A stretch of 48,188 nucleotides of DNA from Candidatus Heimdallarchaeota archaeon (GTDB lineage Archaea > Asgardarchaeota > Heimdallarchaeia > Heimdallarchaeales > Heimdallarchaeaceae). The translations under genes were made by a program, and so were the position numbers. Positions 7,875-43,656 of the stretch are shown one piece after another (within the stretch, counting starts at the first letter, position 1; every line of letters starts with the position of its first letter). The stretch is taken from positions 1 to 48,188 of the forward strand of contig JAUWPI010000002.1 in NCBI GenBank assembly GCA_030611665.1, written 5' to 3'. The notes under the pieces are model-generated. The model was not told the DNA's origin and made no database searches. It saw only the letters and a program-made list of their open reading frames with translations.

Positions 7875-10118
7875 TTATTTTATTTGAGATGATCTTCCTC
7901 TAGCAAAGTCAGCAATAACTATGTAAGAAACTAGCTTTGCAAAGTAAGTAGACTTGCTTAAGATTCCAACAACTTCTCCAGTAGCTTCATCTTGTGCAGC
8001 AATAAGAACTTCTTCATTTTCTCTTTCAACACCGATGAATCTTGGCAGTTCAACACCCGTTCCAGTATCTCTGAATCTTCTGATTTCTACATTAGCTTGA
8101 GATTCTAATGCTGACGAAATCCAAGCGCCATCTGTATCCTCATCAAGTTTTGTTACTAGAGTAACTTTAGCTGTTGTTGGTAGTGATTTAACCGCTTCTA
8201 AGGGGATGTATTCCTTGTGTGGAGATAGTATTGTAACCCCTCGTTTCGTGTCTTTAACGATTCTAGCAATGTTCTCTTTGACAGCTTCTAGACCAATAAT
8301 AGATGTTGTCTGAACGGGGGGAATGGTTGTTTCTTTTGAGGTAGCTTCAAGAGATCTGAAATCGTTCTTCAGTTTCATAGTCATGCTCAGAAGATAGTTT
8401 GCTGTATCTGACATTTTACGGTTATTATCTCCGATAAATTTAACTGAATCATTGACTTCTGAAGTAAGACTGCCAGCGAGTAGTTGTTTACCCTCTTCTA
8501 TATTTACTTTGGATGCATTTGCTATTTGGTCAACTGTAATTACAGCTGAATCTAGTGATTGCTGTAAAAAGCTGTTTAGCTCTTCCTTAAATGAAGAAGT
8601 AGTTGTTTGAACTAGATTTGAAACTTCTTGAAAGTGCTCTGTTATAGCTGTTTCGCTTTCTTGTATTAATGTTTCAGTTTTGCCTACCAAGTCTGACCAT
8701 TTTTCTTTCAATTGGTTAGAACCAGCAACAAATGAATCTGAAAACACTGAGTTGAGTTGGTCAGATAATGTACGAAATGATTGAACATTGCTATTCAAAT
8801 TCGCAATAACACTATTCGAAATCTCATTGAACTTATTGGAAAATTCTTCGTTGAATGAAGTAAATCTTTCAGTTGCTCCTACTTTAACTTCACTGAGTTT
8901 TTCATTATAACTTTGAATTGTCTCATTATAATGACTTTCTAGCTTTTGCATAAACATATCTCGTTCACTCACTAGATTGTTTCTCTGGTTTTGTTCATTG
9001 TTTTGTAGATCAGTGTATTTGAGAGCCATGCTCTCTTTAATCTGTGAGACTGTTGCAGAAATAGTTGTGTTTTTTTGTTGTTGTAGTTCACTCACAAGAG
9101 TAGTTTTTATGTTTTCAATTTTTTCATTGAGCGAGTTAACAGCTTCTTGAATATTTAACGAAAGTTCCTCTACTCTTTGGTTAAGTATCAAGTCTAATGA
9201 TTCTCCTAAACCTTGAAGGTTTGTTGAAACTGCTTCAGAAACAGAATCAACATTCTTCTCAGCATTTCTGGTTATCTCTGAAGAATATCCGAGATATTTC
9301 TCTGACTGCGTTCTATTAAAAGCTCTAACATCTAATTTTGAGACATTGATTCGTTGTTCTATTAGCTGCATCAATTCGTTAACTTCAGACAAATATTTTT
9401 GATGTAATTCGTTTAGCTTTGGTTGTAATGACTCAGAAACAGATTGGATTGTATTTATAGAATCCTGTGAAAGTTGAGAGATTTGATTGTTTGAAACTGT
9501 AACTGATTCTTCAGTCTGTTGCTTAATATTTCCTACTACTGTGTTCAATGTAGTTTTAGCTTGATTTAAATTACTCACATTTTCATCCAAGTATCCTTTA
9601 ATAGTAGCATTGAATTCAGCTTTCTTTTCTTCTCCTAATGTATTGTAATTGGAAATTAAAGCTGCAGATTTTTCCGCTACCGCTTGTTTCTGTTGTTGAT
9701 TTAGTGCATTAAAAGATGAATGAGATGCAGACAACGAACTGTCAATTGCTGTTTTCTTTTGTTCTGCGTTTTCTTCAAACTGTCTAGTAAGGCTTTCCCT
9801 TAATTGATTGAAACTCTCATTTTTACTTTGTATGAAACTTGTTGTTTCTGCAAGATTTGTCTTAATTTCAGAACTTAGTTTTTCACTGGTTTCAGCTAAG
9901 TATTCCAATGGGATTTTAACATAATATTTGTTGATATACCCTTCAGAAACTCCGATGGCACCTTTGTTTATCAAAGCATCGAGAGCAACATTTACCTTAG
10001 ATAAATGTAAGCTGCTAAATTGAGCAGTTTCAAAAGAGGTTAACTGCCCACATCCCAGAAGAAGTTGATAAATTTGTTTTTCTTCCTGTGTTAATTCTAA
10101 TCTTTCTATAAAGGACAT
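7875..10118 (-). CDS. TrmB-family winged-helix protein with a very long alpha-helical/coiled-coil insert and a TrmB-like C-terminal domain
   Basis: The N-terminus LTQEEKQIYQLLLGCGQLTSFETAQFSSLHLSKVNVALDALINKGAIG matches the TrmB-type wHTH pattern. About 550 residues of S/N/Q/E/L-rich heptad-like sequence follow. A mixed alpha/beta C-terminal domain of about 130 aa ends the protein (VTILSPHKEYIPLE...VEIRRFR...FIGVEREN). Confidence 0.55.
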   Translation of the reverse strand: MSFIERLELTQEEKQIYQLLLGCGQLTSFETAQFSSLHLSKVNVALDALINKGAIGVSEGYINKYYVKIPLEYLAETSEKLSSEIKTNLAETTSFIQSKNESFNQLRESLTRQFEENAEQKKTAIDSSLSASHSSFNALNQQQKQAVAEKSAALISNYNTLGEEKKAEFNATIKGYLDENVSNLNQAKTTLNTVVGNIKQQTEESVTVSNNQISQLSQDSINTIQSVSESLQPKLNELHQKYLSEVNELMQLIEQRINVSKLDVRAFNRTQSEKYLGYSSEITRNAEKNVDSVSEAVSTNLQGLGESLDLILNQRVEELSLNIQEAVNSLNEKIENIKTTLVSELQQQKNTTISATVSQIKESMALKYTDLQNNEQNQRNNLVSERDMFMQKLESHYNETIQSYNEKLSEVKVGATERFTSFNEEFSNKFNEISNSVIANLNSNVQSFRTLSDQLNSVFSDSFVAGSNQLKEKWSDLVGKTETLIQESETAITEHFQEVSNLVQTTTSSFKEELNSFLQQSLDSAVITVDQIANASKVNIEEGKQLLAGSLTSEVNDSVKFIGDNNRKMSDTANYLLSMTMKLKNDFRSLEATSKETTIPPVQTTSIIGLEAVKENIARIVKDTKRGVTILSPHKEYIPLEAVKSLPTTAKVTLVTKLDEDTDGAWISSALESQANVEIRRFRDTGTGVELPRFIGVERENEEVLIAAQDEATGEVVGILSKSTYFAKLVSYIVIADFARGRSSQIK

Positions 10119-20720: not shown

Positions 20721-20996
20721 ATGAATGCTCAGTCAATAGATTCGATTAGTATGACAGTAATAATTCAAGTAACGGATAATCGGACATGTAGTTTGCTTTA
20801 TGAAACTCTTGTTTTAGAGTCCAGGTATAATCCCAACGATAGAGCACAGGCAAATTTGACAGTTGATAACAATCTTTTAATTTTAGAAATAAATGCTAAG
20901 GATCCTGTATCTGCTAGAGCTTCAATTAACTCATTCATGAAATGGATAGGCATATCGCTTCAAATTATTTCAATGACAGAAGATACAGAGAAGTAG
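20721..20996 (+). CDS. pcc1: KEOPS subunit, Pcc1 family
   Basis: LLILEINAKDPVSARASINSFMKWIGISLQII matches the Pcc1 signature (..i.A.D..alRa.vNs.lrWi). It has the conserved superoperon position. Confidence 0.65.
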   Translation: MNAQSIDSISMTVIIQVTDNRTCSLLYETLVLESRYNPNDRAQANLTVDNNLLILEINAKDPVSARASINSFMKWIGISLQIISMTEDTEK

Positions 20997-23190: not shown

Positions 23191-24036
23191 ATGCCAAAAG
23201 AAGATTTAAAGTCACTAGTTAATTCTGTAAATATGTTGAAAAACATGGTTGAAAGCATTGTTGCAGCTGTACAAGAGAGATTCAAAGATTATGATAATGT
23301 TGTCGTATCCTTGAAAGAAAGGTTAGACAATCTAGAATCTTCCAGTGGATCGGTTCCAACAACTCCTTCACGAGAAATTAGTTCTGACATAACAGCGAGA
23401 ACAGAAACATTAGAGAAACGATTGGACACATTGAATGAGAGACTATTGCTTATTGAAACTTCAAAAGGTGAAGTAGTTGAAGCACTCCCAACACCTGAAC
23501 CAGAAATTAAGGATGAAGTTGAATCTGTCATTACAGAAGCACCTCCGACACCAGCACCAGTTCCAGAGATAATTGAAACTTTGAAAGATTTCGAGGAACC
23601 AGTAGTGAAAGAGGAAAGCGCTGCAGTTCAACCAATTGTAGGTGTGCCTTCTATACCAACTCCAGGAGCTATTCCAACACCAGCACCTACACCTAAACCT
23701 GAAGGTACTATTGGTGTTCCAACACCTGCGGTTGAAGTAACTGCACCTCCAACAGAGGTATCTGTGCCTGCGCCTGCCCCCACTCCTGCATCACAGATTA
23801 CCGAAGCTACAGAAAGGGATGTTAGTCCTATTTCAAAGCAAGTATCAGGAGCAATTCCAACACCACCAGCGGCAGAAGAAACAATTCAACCAGAAACTGA
23901 AATTCAACCTCCTGTACCAAAAGCAGAAGAAGTGAAACCTCCTGAAGAAGGAAAGTCTGCTGAATTATTTGGAGAAGCCGTAAGTGGAGATAAAGCTGAG
24001 CTACTCAAAGCTTTGAAAAAGCTGGAAGATTTGTAA
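23191..24036 (+). CDS. Coiled-coil plus Pro/Thr/Glu-rich low-complexity protein, unknown function
   Basis: 281 aa. The N-terminal 95 aa or so are heptad-like (LKERLDNLES...LEKRLDTLNERLLLIE). A P/T/E/A-rich segment of about 160 aa with GAIPTP(A/P) repeats follows. The C-terminus is a short amphipathic helix, AELLKALKKLEDL. Confidence 0.5.
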   Translation: MPKEDLKSLVNSVNMLKNMVESIVAAVQERFKDYDNVVVSLKERLDNLESSSGSVPTTPSREISSDITARTETLEKRLDTLNERLLLIETSKGEVVEALPTPEPEIKDEVESVITEAPPTPAPVPEIIETLKDFEEPVVKEESAAVQPIVGVPSIPTPGAIPTPAPTPKPEGTIGVPTPAVEVTAPPTEVSVPAPAPTPASQITEATERDVSPISKQVSGAIPTPPAAEETIQPETEIQPPVPKAEEVKPPEEGKSAELFGEAVSGDKAELLKALKKLEDL

Positions 24037-24084: not shown

Positions 24085-25122
24085 ATGGTAAGTTCATTAA
24101 TAGTTTACATAATAGCATTTACTGTTCCCTTATTTTTATCTGGAATAGGATTTCCTTTTTTCATCAAATTTATGCTAAAAAAAGGAATTTTTGGGATAGA
24201 CATTCACAAGAAGGAACAACCAAAAGTTGCAGAAATGGGGGGTATTGTCATAATTATCTCACTTATAATTAGTTCAGTGATAGCAATTTTAGTTGTTGAA
24301 GATTCAAAGGTACAACTTATGATCGGTATGTTCTGCATAACAATAACAATTGCTGGGATCATAGGTATCATAGATGATTTTTTGACTTTAAATGCTATAC
24401 TAAAACCAGTTCTTTTACTTATAGCTTCTGTTCCAATAATTGCTTCCACTTGGTTCAGTACCGGACCATTATACAATCCTGAACCATTATTTCCATTAAT
24501 AGGTCAAACAAGATTAACAATAGTTTACCTAATGCTCTTACCATTTGTTATTACGGTTCCTGCTAATGCAGTAAATATGATTGATGTTTTTAATGGCTCA
24601 ATGGCTACAACTACAATCATTGTCCTTATTACATCCTTTATTGCAAATATAATCATATTTGATAGAGATTATACTATTCTAGATCCAACAAATATTTTTA
24701 TACTAATGATAACTGGAGTTCTAATAGCTTTTCTAGTTTATAATCGCTATCCAGCCCGAGTTTTTGGTGGTGATTCAAGTAGTCTGACAATAGGTGCTTC
24801 TTTAGGAGCTATCGCTGTTCTAGGTCGTCTTGAAATTGTGATAATAATAGCCATTATTCCATTTATAATGAATTCCTTTGGAATAATTAGTAGTGTTAAA
24901 GGATTGTTAGAACGAAGAAAAATGGCTAGACCAACAAAGATGACGAAAGACTGGAAGATTGAATCTACCAATGATCAAAAAGCTCCAATCACATTAGTAG
25001 GATTGGTAATTCAAAAAGGCCCGTTACATGAAAAAGATGTTGTAAAAAGTTTTGGAGTTCTTACGGTTTTCAGTAGCATACTAGCAATAATAACTGCCAT
25101 ATTGATTAGAGTGGTGATTTAA
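24085..25122 (+). CDS. aglH: UDP-HexNAc:dolichyl/polyprenyl-phosphate HexNAc-1-P transferase (GT4 MraY/WecA/AglH family)
   Basis: Multi-TM protein with IGIIDDF and NAVNMIDVFNG motifs. Confidence 0.8.
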   Translation: MVSSLIVYIIAFTVPLFLSGIGFPFFIKFMLKKGIFGIDIHKKEQPKVAEMGGIVIIISLIISSVIAILVVEDSKVQLMIGMFCITITIAGIIGIIDDFLTLNAILKPVLLLIASVPIIASTWFSTGPLYNPEPLFPLIGQTRLTIVYLMLLPFVITVPANAVNMIDVFNGSMATTTIIVLITSFIANIIIFDRDYTILDPTNIFILMITGVLIAFLVYNRYPARVFGGDSSSLTIGASLGAIAVLGRLEIVIIIAIIPFIMNSFGIISSVKGLLERRKMARPTKMTKDWKIESTNDQKAPITLVGLVIQKGPLHEKDVVKSFGVLTVFSSILAIITAILIRVVI

Positions 25123-25454
25123 TGAGGTTACATAAACTAACTCCAAAACTATATAGGGTTCTTGGTCTTGAGTTATTTGTTTTTGGAACCTTCATAGGCA
25201 TTTGTGCAATTATCGACTCATTAATTGTTGGTTTCCCAGAGAATCCAAACCCCACAATCAATTTCATCATTGGTGCTTCCAAGGTAATTATTAGTATAAT
25301 ATTGATAGCTATTTGGTTATACGTTTGGTACTATATTACAAAGCGACTTATGGTTAGTAAGGAGGACATAAAGGAAGCAAAGAAAATTAAGAGAGAAAAG
25401 AAACAAGTAAAAATGCAAAAAAAGAAAGAGAAGAAAAAGAATATTAAGACTTAG
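25122..25454 (+). CDS. Small two-TM membrane protein with a Lys-rich tail
   Basis: The ATG overlaps the aglH stop (TAATG). It has two hydrophobic helices followed by KIKREKKQVKMQKKKEKKKNIKT. Confidence 0.45.
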   Translation: MRLHKLTPKLYRVLGLELFVFGTFIGICAIIDSLIVGFPENPNPTINFIIGASKVIISIILIAIWLYVWYYITKRLMVSKEDIKEAKKIKREKKQVKMQKKKEKKKNIKT

Positions 25455-26100
25455 CTTCTAACAGATACAACCTTTTCTTTAGCATGAAAAACTTCTTTGA
25501 AAACTCTAAACTTGAAATTTCATAGTCTTCGAACTGAGATTCAATTGCAAAAAGTTCGTTTTCTACGTTAAGAATTTCATCTTCTAAATGCTTCTTCTTT
25601 TCCTGATTTAGAACTCGAGTTGTAATTTGTGAGGAGTTCTTTGATTGTATATCTGCTAATTCTGTCTTCTTATTTTGTAAAATAATTGATAATTGCTCTT
25701 TCTGTGCAATTAAAGGATCCAATTGATTTTTGGGTGCTTTCCACTTTGGTCCAGTAGTAATCTTTCTAGCAGGTACTTTTGAGAACAAACGGATAACCTC
25801 TACAATCACTTGGAATAAGTGATAACTAGGTCTCCATCTGGCAAGGACTCGCATTTCAAGGAACCCTTCAGTATTGATATTTGGATGTGTTATTTGTGTT
25901 AATATTTCAATTTCTGGTGGAGAATCGGGAAATGCATTTGGTAAACTTATCTCAACTTCTACAGGAATTTCTCCTTCATCGGAAATTGCTGAAACAAAAC
26001 CTCTCCACTTTGTTAAATTTCCATCTATTGGTTCGAATGCATATGCTCGTTCCATAACAAGACTATATTCTTTCGCTAAGATACTATCTGGAATAGGCAT
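25444..26100 (-). CDS. E2-variant (UEV, no catalytic Cys) plus coiled coil plus Vps23-core/steadiness-box-like tail; TSG101/Vps23-like
   Basis: UBC-fold signature LPNAFPDSPPEIEILTQITHPNINTEGFLEMRVLARWRPSY, where the E2 active-site Cys position is occupied by non-Cys residues. The whole 218-aa protein contains no Cys. Residues from about 128 to 190 are heptad-like. The C-terminal YEISSLEFSKKFFMLKKRLYLLEA resembles the I(S/D)...F.K..R.L.r.qF..RA motif of the Vps23 core. Confidence 0.65.
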   Translation of the reverse strand: MPIPDSILAKEYSLVMERAYAFEPIDGNLTKWRGFVSAISDEGEIPVEVEISLPNAFPDSPPEIEILTQITHPNINTEGFLEMRVLARWRPSYHLFQVIVEVIRLFSKVPARKITTGPKWKAPKNQLDPLIAQKEQLSIILQNKKTELADIQSKNSSQITTRVLNQEKKKHLEDEILNVENELFAIESQFEDYEISSLEFSKKFFMLKKRLYLLEAKS

Positions 26101-26226
26101 TTTTATTTCTGACTCCTTTCGAAATATAATTGCGCAACGCCTTATTTATAGATTCGCTTTTGATTGCAATGAAAAAGTTATTTTCAATCCTTACACTTTT
26201 AAACGTAAAATGTTTTTTCGAAATTG

Positions 26227-34493: not shown

Positions 34494-36056
34494 GTGAGCG
34501 GAATAAATTCTAATGCGATAGAAATTATTTATCATCAACCAGGACACCTAAAGGGTGTCACAGTAATTCAAGTGATAGATGGTAAAATCTTCACAGGTGG
34601 CGGAGAAGGGAGGATCTGTATTTGGGATGAGAAGATAGAAAAAGAAATCGCTTGTATTTATGCTCACAATGCAGCAATTACTGATATTCAAAGGATTTCT
34701 GATACTAATTATTTCGTCACCACGTCACAGAATTTAGAAATCAATTTATGGTCTCTTAAAACTTTAGAATTGCTTCAATCAAAGAGAGCACATTCATCTA
34801 CTATTATTGGTGCAAAACCTTGGAGGAATTACATCATAAGTGCGAGTAGAGATCAGTTTCTCAAAAAATGGAAACTGGAAAATAATAAACTAATCGAGGT
34901 TGATAAGGTCAAAATTCCTGATTTGGAAAGATTCTTCATAGAAGATGACATTATAATCACAGCTCACAATGATGGTCTAATTTCAATATATGGGGCAGAG
35001 GATTTGGGGTTTGTAAAATATTTATCGATCAAACCTTCAGCAATAATAAAAGCTATAAAAAAGGCATCAAAAGATATAACTGAATTTCAAGGAAAAAATC
35101 CCAGGTATATTCTACAACAGTTTGCTAGACTAAATGGTATTCCTGTAACTATCTGCAAAGCTACAGAGGAGAGTATTATAATAGGTCATGTAGCAGGAAT
35201 GATTTCTACATGGGACAAACACAAGTATAAAAATACTGAAATTATTTTCCCCCATGGTAAAAACATAACAGGTGTAGAAATTAAGAATAATAGTATATAT
35301 TCCAGTTCAATGAGTTCTCATTTGAAAAAGAGTGATTTTAATTCTAAACGATTAATTGTACAAACCAAGATAGAACATAGACCTCTTTCACTTTCATTAT
35401 TACCATCTAAAAAAATTATAGTGGGATTAGAATCCGGAGAGATACATCTCTATGACGAATCTTTAAACTTAGTGAAGAAGAAGAACAATATTGTGCCAGT
35501 TTCTAGTCTTTGCATTATGCCTGAGAACGTTGTAGTTGCTTCCAGAGATGGTGAAATCGTTGTTTTAGACATTAATTCTCTTAAACAACTAAATACAAAA
35601 AAGCTATACAAAAAATCCATTCAGGGCATTTTCTACTATGATAATAGGTTAATCTGTATTGGAGACAATTCTACAATTCATATTCTCGATTCAGATTTGA
35701 ATGTTTTAAAAACCATCAAATTATCTGAAAAGCCAACTAAACTTTATCAGGTGAAAAGATACATAATATTAACTCCAAATCTTGTACTAGATTTACAAAA
35801 AGATGAAATCATCAAAGGAGAAATATCAAAAGAAACAGAAAATGAAGTATCTGAAACCAATCTTTTTCAAATAGACTTCTCTCACGGAGATTCTTCAATA
35901 TTCATACATAACAACAAGTTGGAAAACATCGATTATTCAGATAAGTATTCTTACTATCCAGCAGAAATTATCAAAGCTTTGAGAATACTAGTAGATTCTC
36001 AGAATAAAATGCAATACTCTAGGATAAATTCAGAGACTGTTTCATTTCAAATATAA
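34494..36056 (+). CDS. WD40-repeat beta-propeller protein
   Basis: Repeated units of about 40 aa with the H...I......-hydrophobic strand-..D..I..W pattern (GGGEGRICIWD, SQNLEINLWS, SRDQFLKKWK, HVAGMISTWD, LESGEIHLYD, SRDGEIVVLD). GTG start. Confidence 0.62.
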   Translation: MSGINSNAIEIIYHQPGHLKGVTVIQVIDGKIFTGGGEGRICIWDEKIEKEIACIYAHNAAITDIQRISDTNYFVTTSQNLEINLWSLKTLELLQSKRAHSSTIIGAKPWRNYIISASRDQFLKKWKLENNKLIEVDKVKIPDLERFFIEDDIIITAHNDGLISIYGAEDLGFVKYLSIKPSAIIKAIKKASKDITEFQGKNPRYILQQFARLNGIPVTICKATEESIIIGHVAGMISTWDKHKYKNTEIIFPHGKNITGVEIKNNSIYSSSMSSHLKKSDFNSKRLIVQTKIEHRPLSLSLLPSKKIIVGLESGEIHLYDESLNLVKKKNNIVPVSSLCIMPENVVVASRDGEIVVLDINSLKQLNTKKLYKKSIQGIFYYDNRLICIGDNSTIHILDSDLNVLKTIKLSEKPTKLYQVKRYIILTPNLVLDLQKDEIIKGEISKETENEVSETNLFQIDFSHGDSSIFIHNNKLENIDYSDKYSYYPAEIIKALRILVDSQNKMQYSRINSETVSFQI

Positions 36057-43377: not shown

Positions 43378-43656
43378 ATGAGAACCTTGAAACTAGATTC
43401 GACACAAGTTCAAATTACAATAGGTTGTATAAATCCAGAACTAGCAGAAATTATAGTTAAGGGATTAGAACCTGAGAATTCTTTACTAGATGACGACACA
43501 AAAATAATAATGAAGAGAGACGGAAAGAATGTTGAAATCAGTATCGAATCCAGTGCAAAGATATCATCAATACGATACACATTGGATGATATTCTAAATA
43601 CAATTTCTACAATAGAGAAAGTATTCTTATCTGCGAACAAACTTGAAGAGCAATAG
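43378..43656 (+). CDS. Second Pcc1-family protein (Pcc1/Pcc2-like KEOPS subunit)
   Basis: VQITIGCINPELAEIIVKGLEPEN...GKNVEISIESSAKISSIRYTLDDILNTISTIEKV follows the Pcc1 beta-alpha-beta-beta-alpha pattern. It is collinear by eye with 20721-20996. Confidence 0.58.
   Translation: MRTLKLDSTQVQITIGCINPELAEIIVKGLEPENSLLDDDTKIIMKRDGKNVEISIESSAKISSIRYTLDDILNTISTIEKVFLSANKLEEQ

Follow-up and report, generated by a model that had tools for sequence, protein, structure and literature searches.

A compact, cysteine-less paralogue of Asgard Vps23 encoded away from ESCRT genes in Heimdall-group archaea

The window analysed here, a stretch of 48,188 nucleotides at the start of contig JAUWPI010000002.1 (assembly GCA_030611665.1) of a Candidatus Heimdallarchaeota archaeon, carries a complete gene, opening with ATG, whose 218-residue product contains no cysteine on direct reading of the open reading frame (Table 1). 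It is flanked on one side by a GT4/AglH-like glycosyltransferase gene and a small transmembrane ORF, and on the other by the divergently transcribed ABCE1/RLI gene, with which it shares a short intergenic region holding a TATA-like element and a GGAG stretch, read as the putative promoter and ribosome-binding site. Neither ESCRT, Vps28, E1, nor ubiquitin genes were found in the window, whether by Pfam scans of the tested ORFs of at least 90 aa, by synteny annotation, which was used for 15.1–18.1 kb, or by a phmmer query of the six-frame ORFs with human ubiquitin. The cysteine-free ORF, its AglH and ABCE1 flanks, and the lack of ESCRT or ubiquitin genes in the window are all as the initial annotation had described them. 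Orthologues in the Heimdallarchaeaceae also sit between AglH-like and ABCE1 genes, and distant family members occupy other housekeeping contexts; in none of the neighbourhoods inspected, in Heimdallarchaeaceae or in distant members, do genes of the family adjoin ESCRT or ubiquitin genes, and genomic context therefore lends no support to an ESCRT role. A functional linkage to ABCE1 or AglH was also considered and rejected, as the adjacency is restricted to Heimdallarchaeaceae and lost in distant members.

Table 1. Features of the gene, its product, and the upstream region (positions are those of the window)
Feature	Position	Strand	Basis
Complete gene, 218 aa + stop	25444..26100	-	ORF list; 37 orthologues of ~218 aa; full-length homology to Asgard Vps23
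Truncated UBC/E2 fold (UEV domain), residues 1-112	25765..26100	-	Pfam UQ_con; AF2 secondary structure; Foldseek
H72-P73-N74, E2 'HPN' motif, retained	25879..25887	-	Translation; alignment of orthologues
Glu82 at E2 catalytic Cys position	25855..25857	-	Alignment to UBE2L3 active-site position 86; translation
Variable low-confidence linker, residues 113-122	25735..25764	-	pLDDT ~60; poorly conserved columns
Stalk helix, amphipathic, heptad-like, residues 123-153	25642..25734	-	AF2; heptad test; alignment to Odin/Heimdall stalks
Hairpin helix 1, acidic, residues 161-191	25528..25620	-	AF2 pLDDT ~89-91; 8 D/E vs 4 K/R
Hairpin loop DYEIS, residues 192-196	25513..25527	-	AF2; alignments
Hairpin helix 2, basic, residues 197-217, 6 K/R vs 2 D/E	25450..25512	-	AF2; Foldseek
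Divergent intergenic region, 123 bp, common to gene and ABCE1 gene	26101..26223	.	Read from sequence
TATA-like TATAAATA (putative promoter)	26143-26150 (-50 to -43 from ATG)	target strand	Read from sequence
GGAG (putative ribosome-binding site)	26113-26116	target strand	Read from sequence

The N-terminal domain has the fold of a ubiquitin-conjugating enzyme without the two C-terminal E2 helices. Pfam UQ_con (PF00179) matches residues 28–108 with an E value of 2.6e-14 (53.5 bits against a cut-off of 27), the UBC signature that the initial annotation had singled out lies at residues 57–92 (FPDSPPEIEILTQITHPNINTEGFLEMRVLARWRP), and the AF2 model superposes on UbcH5, Ubc13, and Rad6 in Foldseek (E ~1e-7, rmsd 2.1–2.8 Å over ~110 columns), with E2 enzymes making up all 50 matches listed for the domain (best E 2.5e-7). 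An RWD domain (PF05773), the competing fold that the same annotation had raised, reached 16.8 bits against a cut-off of 22.8 and was discarded, the top structural matches being E2 enzymes. The TSG101-type UEV model PF05743 gives the 218-aa protein 19.6 bits (cut-off 27), compared with the 53.5 bits of UQ_con, and four orthologues (P0029, P0031, P0033, and P0012) score 41.5, 37.3, 29.0, and 27.7 bits with PF05743. The HPN motif is invariant in Heimdallarchaeaceae orthologues and degenerate in distant family members. With the catalytic cysteine replaced by Glu82, no ubiquitin thioester is possible, and the domain, judged by its sequence, is an E2 variant, or a UEV in the broad sense, in agreement with the pseudo-E2 proposed at the outset. 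The check for a hidden cysteine found E, S, A, D, or T at this column in orthologues and a cysteine in none of the 22 + 23 aligned homologues, which excludes a sequencing error.

Beyond the linker, AF2 predicts three helices, the last two with pLDDT values of 82–92. The initial annotation had described a heptad-rich stalk of about 60 aa. In one heptad register running over residues 123–191, hydrophobic residues fill 60% of the a/d positions and 22% of the others, a pattern equalled by 2.5% of shuffles. The stalk is short, comprising ~31 aa and, beyond them, the first helix of the hairpin. The last two helices are predicted to form this hairpin, acidic first and basic second, which matches the charge pattern given for steadiness boxes (SBs) by Lu et al. 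(2023, bioRxiv 10.1101/2023.07.25.550441). The C-terminal tail YEISSLEFSKKFFMLKKRLYLLEA is the most conserved stretch of the C-terminal half, EF.KKF..LKKRLYLL in the second hairpin helix is its best-conserved motif, and the DYEIS loop has its aligned counterpart in F-E-D-G-D-I of Asgard Vps23 and R-G-V-I-D of TSG101. When the C-terminal AF2 model was compared with 350,542 PDB chains, the two top Foldseek matches, 2F6M_C and 2F66_A, were both yeast Vps23-C (prob 0.93 and 0.91, TM 0.78 and 0.74), and further ESCRT-I headpiece chains (2P22_A/B, 6VME, and 2CAZ_B) ranked in the top 31; the E value of the hairpin, 0.84, is not significant, and hairpins of two helices are structurally simple. A profile of the tail searched against PDB sequences returned only chance coiled-coil or uL29 matches (E>0.4).

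The evidence that carries the identification of the protein as a whole is its homology to Asgard UEV-Vps23 proteins (asCOG005829/007313), whose standing as Vps23 is accepted and partly backed by experiment. BLASTP aligns residues 5–218 with residues 8–262 of HeimAB125_14070 (4e-36, 31% identity overall and ~42% in the UEV) and residues 6–214 with residues 4–237 of Odin Vps23 (8e-16), and hhalign against a profile of these two proteins gives an E value of 4.3e-39 and a probability of 99.96% over 210 columns. The stalk and hairpin taken alone still match Asgard Vps23 with P 5.9e-8, and the hairpin alone matches the Asgard SB, ungapped, with P 1.9e-7. An HMM of the C-terminal part scores the Asgard Vps23 tails at 26.1 (Odin) and 22.9 bits, the maxima among shuffles being 10.6 and 15.5; the controls consisted of 2000 composition-preserving shuffles, none of which reached the real score, together with reversed sequences. 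In turn, the part of the Heimdall fusion lying opposite the tail in the alignment matches Pfam Vps23_core (PF09454) at 23.6, 25.0, and 29.3 bits (cut-off 26.8), and the Asgard SB profile matches the eukaryotic Vps23_core with P 2.3e-4 and the register unchanged, all three pairwise alignments sharing the one register that the initial annotation had proposed. By these computations, the C-terminal acidic/basic hairpin is homologous to the steadiness box of Asgard Vps23 proteins.

Both Asgard relatives resemble the 218-aa protein in architecture and differ from it in detail. HeimAB125_14070 (OLS31938.1), the ESCRT-I protein of the AB_125 clade, is a UEV-Vps23-Vps28 fusion whose UEV binds Heimdall ubiquitin (PMC9192718). 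It is collinear in UEV, stalk, and Vps23 SB and likewise lacks a catalytic cysteine, but it measures 469 aa, its stalk exceeds that of the 218-aa protein by ~40 aa, and the chain goes on to the SB and C-terminal domain of Vps28, whereas the 218-aa protein stops right after the first SB. The fusion is encoded in an E1 / fusion / Vps22 / Vps25 / Vps4 / 2x Snf7 cluster, in contrast to the AglH-like/ABCE1 setting of the gene described here. The Vps23 of Odinarchaeota LCB_4 (OdinLCB4_14270), which was shown to bind ubiquitin and which also binds Vps28, forming a 2:1 complex (PMC9192718), has the same three-part architecture, is short (251 aa), and aligns over its full length; like the 218-aa protein it shows no Vps23_core among the best 25 of its 39 Pfam matches (E≤1), but its gene adjoins those for ubiquitin, a RING E3, and Vps28, the asparagine of its HPN motif is gone, and its stalk is longer.

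Direct comparison with eukaryotic ESCRT-I proteins is far less productive. The initial annotation had aligned the tail with the Vps23 core of yeast Vps23 and human TSG101, and direct tests of this similarity failed: PF09454 finds no match at E≤10 in the whole protein or in 18 isolated orthologue tails, and hhalign of the tail against a profile of metazoan and yeast Vps23_core is not significant (P 0.26–0.39), the profile, built from TSG101 homologues and yeast Vps23, being shallow (Neff 2.35) and composed mostly of metazoan exon fragments, some of which contained intron read-through and were trimmed. HMM scores against the TSG101 and yeast Vps23 hairpins were no higher than those of shuffles. 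What the protein shares with eukaryotic Vps23/TSG101 (PF05743 + PF09454) is the domain order of UEV, coiled-coil stalk, and SB-like hairpin, as well as the hairpin register, in which V178-ENELFAIESQFEDYEISSLEFSKKFFMLKKRLYLLEA aligns ungapped to IEDTIFYLGEALRRGVIDLDVFLKHVRLLSRKQFQLRA; it differs in having no Pro-rich linker, a far shorter stalk, and a UEV nearer to the plain E2 core. The proposed order of UEV, stalk, and steadiness box is thus sustained through full-length homology to Asgard Vps23, and not through direct similarity to the eukaryotic Vps23_core. An affinity of sequence to Vps37 was also sought and rejected: the best matches to Vps37/Mod(r) (PF07200) reach 13–14 bits where the cut-off is 30.1 and are collinear, though no better than the Tropomyosin matches, and the family HMM scores the PDB-verified VPS37B hairpin at 1.4 bits, in the shuffle range (hhalign P 0.036).

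The protein is conserved in more than 35 Heimdallarchaeaceae assemblies at 49–94% identity, with 37 orthologues of ~218 aa. A profile of the C-terminal part searched against 1.84 billion representatives retrieved just 25 proteins, all of the same architecture, and did not reach canonical Vps23, and a word-indexed search with a broad alignment found nothing beyond family members; on this computational evidence, the proteins constitute a separate conserved family of ~205–227 aa in Heimdall-group archaea. One member has been noted before, namely HeimAB125_11700, which Hatano et al. (2022, Nat Commun 13:3398; PMC9192718) listed as a cysteine-less E2-like protein and possible UEV, modelling only its E2-like part and discarding the C-terminus for its low lDDT; they gave it no stalk or SB reading and reported no experiment on it. 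Its 26-residue fragment printed in their Suppl. Fig. 7B, 67-LSPITNPNM/TSDGVLEMRLAR/WRDS-92, fits the family at identical numbering (cf. P0012, P0018), which makes HeimAB125_11700 an apparent orthologue; judging by close relatives, it should be ~66% identical to the 218-aa protein. Since AB_125 carries both HeimAB125_11700 and, in its ESCRT cluster, the fusion HeimAB125_14070, the family is not the single Vps23 of its lineage, and the 218-aa protein is a paralogue rather than the cluster-encoded ESCRT-I subunit.

A second precedent is the 'UEV_X' of Lu et al. (2023, bioRxiv 10.1101/2023.07.25.550441; Cell Rep 2024), a UEV with a short helical stretch behind it at residues 170–210, exemplified by OLS29001.1, which occurs in Heimdall-, Gerd-, and Kariarchaeia and lies near UEV-Vps23 in their tree and yet distinct from it. 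The present family is probably the same, being likened to it by architecture, size, and distribution; the accession OLS29001.1 itself was not found among the cluster members of the family. Where Lu et al. labelled the 170–210 tail as PF05120 (GvpG)-like, at an HHpred probability of 65%, the tail of the present family shares homology with the SB of Asgard Vps23, and the best 25 of 37 Pfam matches (E≤10) for the 18 tails do not include GvpG. This type of protein has therefore already been described in Heimdall-group archaea, and the 218-aa protein, as a second copy, is a sound finding rather than a new one.

Several other explanations of these data were weighed. The most durable, which we nonetheless regard as unlikely, is that of a ubiquitin-system protein standing alone outside ESCRT, either an Mms2/Uev1-like E2 cofactor for chain building or a homodimeric ubiquitin receptor whose tail serves self-association. 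It gains from an N-terminal domain whose sequence has no nearer PDB match than canonical E2s and UBE2V1/V2 (Mms2) (E ~1e-8 to 1e-9), from the retained HPN motif, from a gene never located with ESCRT genes, and from the two cysteine-bearing E2s of AB_125-type genomes (07740 and 09840), which are possible partners. However, Mms2/Uev1 have neither stalk nor hairpin, the tail is best conserved in the C-terminal half and SB-like in fold, and no relatives come nearly as close as the Asgard Vps23 proteins, whose similarity spans the full length, tail included; Mms2 was accordingly rejected as the best assignment for the domain, on scores as well as on full-length homology to Vps23. Considerably less probable still is a C-terminal half made of generic coiled coil or of a segment akin to GvpG/CdvA, which would resemble an SB in composition only and leave a 'UEV plus coiled coil'. 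The GvpG label of Lu et al. speaks for it, as do the non-significant comparison with eukaryotic SBs and the Pfam matches listed for the 18 tails, which comprise only sub-threshold coiled-coil families (Tropomyosin, Mod_r, and APG6_N), but no shuffled or reversed sequence approaches the real score, the ungapped alignment of the hairpin is significant, GvpG is missing from the best tail matches, and Foldseek ranks Vps23-C first. An active E2 that lost its cysteine to a sequencing or assembly error, or a decaying pseudogene, to which nothing beyond the E2 fold and the HPN motif points, is refuted by comparison: in more than 40 independent assemblies the length is the same and the site never holds a cysteine, and the ORF is intact and strongly conserved along its whole length.

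Taken as a whole, the observations are best explained by a compact paralogue of Asgard ESCRT-I Vps23 with a ubiquitin-binding, SB-docking role, an explanation we consider probable. By analogy with its Asgard relatives, the protein is likely to function as a ubiquitin-binding ESCRT-I accessory subunit acting through its steadiness box. Its UEV domain would bind the archaeon's ubiquitin non-covalently, as does the 42%-identical UEV of HeimAB125_14070, and its stalk and hairpin would dock onto the SB hairpins of other ESCRT-I-type proteins, whether the Vps23-Vps28 fusion, Vps28, or further SB-containing partners. The protein may then serve as an additional subunit or adaptor for ubiquitin recognition, handing ubiquitylated cargo to ESCRT-II/III/Vps4. 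The gene, located in a housekeeping region, is presumably expressed from a promoter of its own and not as part of the ESCRT operon. A more specific and rather doubtful proposal is that the protein is the archaeal functional counterpart of Vps37. In lineages with a fused Vps23-Vps28, that chain would then supply two hairpins and the free 218-aa protein the third headpiece hairpin, together with a partner stalk helix, yielding a eukaryote-like, three-hairpin ESCRT-I with two ubiquitin-binding UEV domains. Such an arrangement would have parallels in human VPS37A, which bears a UEV, and in the 2:1 Vps23:Vps28 complex found in Odinarchaeota.

Vps23-like proteins of Asgard archaea are central to the arguments for pre-eukaryotic, ubiquitin-directed ESCRT sorting, and the Heimdall group is the lineage closest to eukaryotes. 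Within this group, the gene provides a clean and well-conserved case of a second, minimal Vps23-type protein, and a tail earlier left unmodelled or called GvpG-like may now be read, from its sequence relationships, as a steadiness box. This raises the question of whether the family represents a dedicated second Vps23-like subunit at what later became the Vps37 position or a ubiquitin receptor that has departed from the ESCRT pathway; if the former were true, a Vps23 duplicate for the 'second Vps23' position would predate eukaryotes and would already be present in Heimdall-group archaea. The practical consequence is small, namely that the gene now goes by 'ubiquitin-protein ligase' and 'E2' in databases and both names mislead, and the evolutionary consequence is moderate and hinges on the binding behaviour of the 218-aa protein.

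The 218-residue protein is encoded by an intact ORF with an ATG start, and its N-terminal domain is recognizably that of an E2. Pfam profile searches gave a divided result: UQ_con matches residues 28-108 (E = 2.6e-14; score 53.5 bits, cut-off 27), the UEV model of TSG101 type (19.6 bits) and the RWD model (16.8 bits) fall short of their cut-offs, and Vps23_core finds no match even at E <= 10. The protein contains no cysteine at all; in phmmer alignments to UBE2L3 the catalytic position is taken by Glu82, the HPN motif is kept (H72-P73-N74), and none of the Heimdallarchaeaceae homologues aligned has Cys at the active-site position, where E, S, A and D occur instead. The UBC signature and the Cys-less, UEV-type pseudo-E2 described in the initial annotation are thus both borne out, with computation showing that the thioester cysteine has been lost from an otherwise intact E2 core. 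AlphaFold2 predicts a truncated form of this core (helix 5-18, a four-stranded sheet, and helix 95-108), and in a Foldseek comparison of the whole model with the PDB all 50 matches listed are canonical E2 enzymes (UbcH5, UbcH7, Ubc13, and Rad6; E ~1e-7 over ~110 columns), with no RWD or unrelated fold among them.

The tail had been aligned with the eukaryotic Vps23-core motif, and this comparison fails when made directly. Besides the missing match in the full protein, Vps23_core has none in 18 isolated family tails, a tail-profile search of PDB sequences recovered no ESCRT chains, hhalign of the tail against a eukaryotic Vps23_core profile (PDB-verified TSG101, yeast Vps23, and TSG101 homologues) gave P of 0.26-0.39, and the family HMM scored the hairpins of TSG101, yeast Vps23, and VPS37B inside the shuffle distribution. 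What stands is the relationship via Asgard Vps23, represented by the Odinarchaeota protein and by HeimAB125_14070, the UEV-Vps23-Vps28 fusion of Heimdallarchaeota AB_125 (sequences from Supplementary Data 1 of Hatano et al. 2022, PMC9192718). In BLASTP the protein is collinear with both, aligning 5-218 with 8-262 of the fusion (E = 4e-36, 31% identity) and 6-214 with 4-237 of Odin Vps23 (E = 8e-16, 24% identity). Profile-profile comparison of the family with Asgard Vps23 extends over the full length (E = 4.3e-39, 210 columns) and persists for the stalk plus hairpin (P = 5.9e-8) and for the hairpin alone (P = 1.9e-7, 52 ungapped columns), so that all three parts of the protein are homologous to Asgard Vps23 and the UEV-stalk-steadiness box order first proposed for it is upheld. 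The family C-terminal HMM by itself gives the Odin tail 26.1 bits and the fusion 22.9 bits, as against maxima of 10.6 and 15.5 bits in 2000 composition-preserving shuffles and 9.6 and 7.3 bits for the reversed sequences.

The fusion segment aligned to residues ~172-218 is the one that Pfam calls Vps23_core, at 23.6 bits in AB_125 and at 25.0 and 29.3 bits in the fusions of two comparison loci, L008 and L013 (cut-off 26.8). An Asgard steadiness-box profile in turn matches the eukaryotic Vps23_core profile (P = 2.3e-4), and the family-Asgard, Asgard-eukaryote, and family-eukaryote alignments share one ungapped register, the same as that originally suggested. Odin Vps23, for which ubiquitin and Vps28 binding are reported experimentally (PMC9192718), does not itself have Vps23_core among the best 25 of the 39 Pfam families that it matches at E <= 1, and its UEV reaches 23.1 bits against PF05743, under the cut-off of 27; the missing Pfam match is therefore not disqualifying here, and Pfam thresholds under-call Asgard ESCRT-I proteins generally. 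Taken transitively, the sequence evidence identifies the tail as a homologue of the Asgard Vps23 hairpin, of steadiness-box type.

The predicted fold fits this assignment. In the AlphaFold2 model from the family alignment (mean pLDDT 82.5), the UBC core is followed by a low-confidence linker and by helices 123-153, 161-191, and 197-217, the last two with pLDDT ~89-92; a heptad-rich stalk had been anticipated, and one register across residues 123-191 modestly beats shuffles (P = 0.025). Residues 112-218 were also modelled on their own (pLDDT 83.6); searched against 350,542 PDB chains, this model has as its best two matches 2F6M_C and 2F66_A, both yeast Vps23-C from the ESCRT-I core (probability 0.93 and 0.91, target-normalised TM 0.78 and 0.74, rmsd 2.2-2.3 A over 58 columns), and the top 31 also include yeast Vps23 (2P22_A), human ESCRT-I headpiece chains (6VME), and the Vps28 hairpins 2P22_B and 2CAZ_B. 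None of the E-values (at least 0.84) is significant, which is to be expected of a hairpin with two helices, and the support lies in the ranking of the matches rather than in the statistic. Within the hairpin an acidic helix (8 D/E vs 4 K/R) is followed by a basic one (6 K/R vs 2 D/E), the pattern given for steadiness boxes by Lu et al.

Among 5.8 billion proteins searched there were 37 homologues, nearly all of exactly 218 aa and 49-94% identical; they come from 'Candidatus Heimdallarchaeaceae / Heimdallarchaeum' assemblies, and the best-conserved stretch of their second half is the C-terminal ENELFAIEQQFEDYEISSLEFAKKYF.LKKRLYLLE. Their database names vary ('E2 variant', 'E2', 'ubiquitin-protein ligase'); among the orthologues P0001, P0005, P0006, and P0015, several are labelled 'ubiquitin-protein ligase' or 'ubiquitin-conjugating enzyme E2', and the catalytic cysteine is missing in all. 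The C-terminal 107-residue profile retrieved only 25 of 1.84 billion representative proteins at E <= 0.001, and nearly all full-length ones measure 205-227 aa and carry the matching part C-terminally, behind an E2-like domain; the family is hence a distinct unit, reaching into more distant Heimdall-group lineages, whose members are ~30% identical and in several cases have a decayed HPN motif.

Of the four E2-like proteins that Hatano et al. (PMC9192718) report for AB_125, two have Cys and two lack it, the latter being the fusion and HeimAB125_11700, which they flag as a possible UEV and whose C-terminus was dropped from their modelling. Their Supplementary Fig. 7B shows a fragment of HeimAB125_11700, 67-LSPITNPNM/TSDGVLEMRLAR/WRDS-92, which fits the family at identical residue numbers (LSPITHPNMTPDGVLEMRMLARWRDS in the orthologue P0018; L67...S92 in the window protein), making the latter an apparent orthologue of HeimAB125_11700. 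In a related genome the fusion lies in an ESCRT cluster, in the order ThiF-type E1, fusion, Vps22/EAP30, Vps25, Vps4, and two Snf7 genes; the window protein, whose gene lies outside such a cluster, is accordingly a paralogue. In addition to UEV-Vps23 and UEV-Vps28, Lu et al. 2023 recognise a group termed 'UEV_X', which occurs in Heimdall-, Gerd-, and Kariarchaeia, is placed near UEV-Vps23 in their tree, and joins a UEV to a segment (residues 170-210) resembling PF05120 (GvpG). Compared by description, size, architecture, and distribution agree; GvpG is not among the best 25 of the 37 Pfam families for our family tails; the family is probably UEV_X.

Features of the window and of comparison loci (L numbers, other genomes)
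Feature	Locus	Coordinates	Strand	Remarks
Window protein gene	window	25444-26100	-	218 aa
Small ORF	window	25122-25454	+	110 aa, two predicted TM segments, Lys-rich tail; downstream, convergent, 11-bp overlap with window protein gene 3' end
GT4/AglH-like glycosyltransferase	window			downstream, converging
ABCE1/RLI	window			123 bp upstream, divergent
Fpg, an NTPase, SBDS, Rrp4	window	15.1-18.1 kb		annotated by synteny
Pcc1 (KEOPS subunit)	window	20721-20996	+	first paralogue
Pcc1 (KEOPS subunit)	window	43378-43656	+	second paralogue
Pro/Thr/Glu/Ala-rich protein	window	23191-24036	+	281 aa, N-terminal coiled coil, long low-complexity region, no Pfam match
WD40 beta-propeller protein	window	34494-36056	+	520 aa, adjoins IleRS
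TrmB-type HTH protein	window	7875-10118	-	747 aa, N-terminal HTH, long apolipoprotein-like helical repeats
TrmB-like protein	L014	2719-4899		726-727 aa, 3-4 kb from distant family member
TrmB-like protein	L016	2004-4187		as in L014, another lineage
RNA polymerase A'' with intein	L017	2149-5085		directly downstream of remote family member
RNA polymerase A'' with intein	L018	2146-5019		as in L017
Canonical ESCRT cluster	L008	8916-15938		AB_125 clade; 104-aa ORF without Pfam match between fusion and Vps22

The AglH-like gene and ABCE1 flank the gene as noted initially (G+C of the window ~34%). The ATG of the small ORF overlaps the GT4 stop, and a small TM ORF (90-111 aa) is kept at this position in orthologous loci; in the ABCE1-side spacer, 43-50 bp ahead of the ATG, there is a TATA-like TATAAATA, and the spacer also holds a GGAG; both may be functional. 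Scanned with Pfam, the remaining large ORFs yielded housekeeping genes only (exosome and RNase P subunits, ribosomal proteins, Pcc1, IleRS, TFIIB, a Dna2-like helicase, RFC) and no ESCRT, Vps28, E1, or ubiquitin genes, and human ubiquitin had no phmmer match among all six-frame ORFs, in agreement with the absence first remarked upon. Within Heimdallarchaeaceae the order M28 peptidase, unknown Pro-rich protein, GT4, small TM protein, orthologue, ABCE1 is fixed, and in remote members the neighbours are complex-I-like subunits and PGI, or RNA polymerase A''. Proximity to ABCE1 and AglH thus reflects synteny within the lineage and gives no clue to function. No ESCRT or ubiquitin genes were seen adjoining any family member at these loci. 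Separately, the WD40 protein, matched by many eukaryote-type propeller families, all under cut-off, recurs at the syntenic locus in Ca. Heimdallarchaeum (L001); L001 and L004 encode an unannotated 278-301-aa protein between M28 peptidase and GT4, at the position of the Pro/Thr/Glu/Ala-rich product; the A'' genes of L017 and L018 (Rpb1 domain 5) are split by a LAGLIDADG-endonuclease intein; and the TrmB-like proteins near family genes may reflect remnant synteny or chance.

By analogy with the fusion, whose UEV is 42% identical and binds ubiquitin in cross-linking and SPR assays (PMC9192718), the UEV would bind archaeal ubiquitin non-covalently, and the stalk and hairpin may assemble with other ESCRT-I proteins bearing a steadiness box. 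The main rival reading, in which the protein no longer belongs to the ESCRT pathway and serves as a free ubiquitin receptor or Mms2-like E2 cofactor, draws on the E2-like N-domain and on a gene context outside any ESCRT cluster, but does not fit the conserved steadiness-box tail. The complex of Odin Vps23 with Vps28 has 2:1 stoichiometry, its second Vps23 standing where eukaryotes have Vps37 (PMC9192718). The Heimdall fusion gives only one Vps23 and one Vps28 hairpin, from which comes the attractive idea that the free 218-aa paralogue could provide the third hairpin and partner stalk helix of the headpiece. No specific Vps37 affinity was detected (Mod_r 13-14 bits, like Tropomyosin noise; VPS37B hairpin P = 0.036). 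Vps23-like proteins are well known from Asgard archaea (PMC9192718; PMC10936438; Lu et al. 2023), and the orthologue is already in the literature, its family probably as UEV_X; added here is evidence, from sequence comparison, that the family ends in a true steadiness box and that the protein is a full-length miniature Vps23 paralogue, which supports the original domain reading through Asgard Vps23 homology and predicted fold. Its significance would rise if it does bind to complete an ESCRT-I headpiece.
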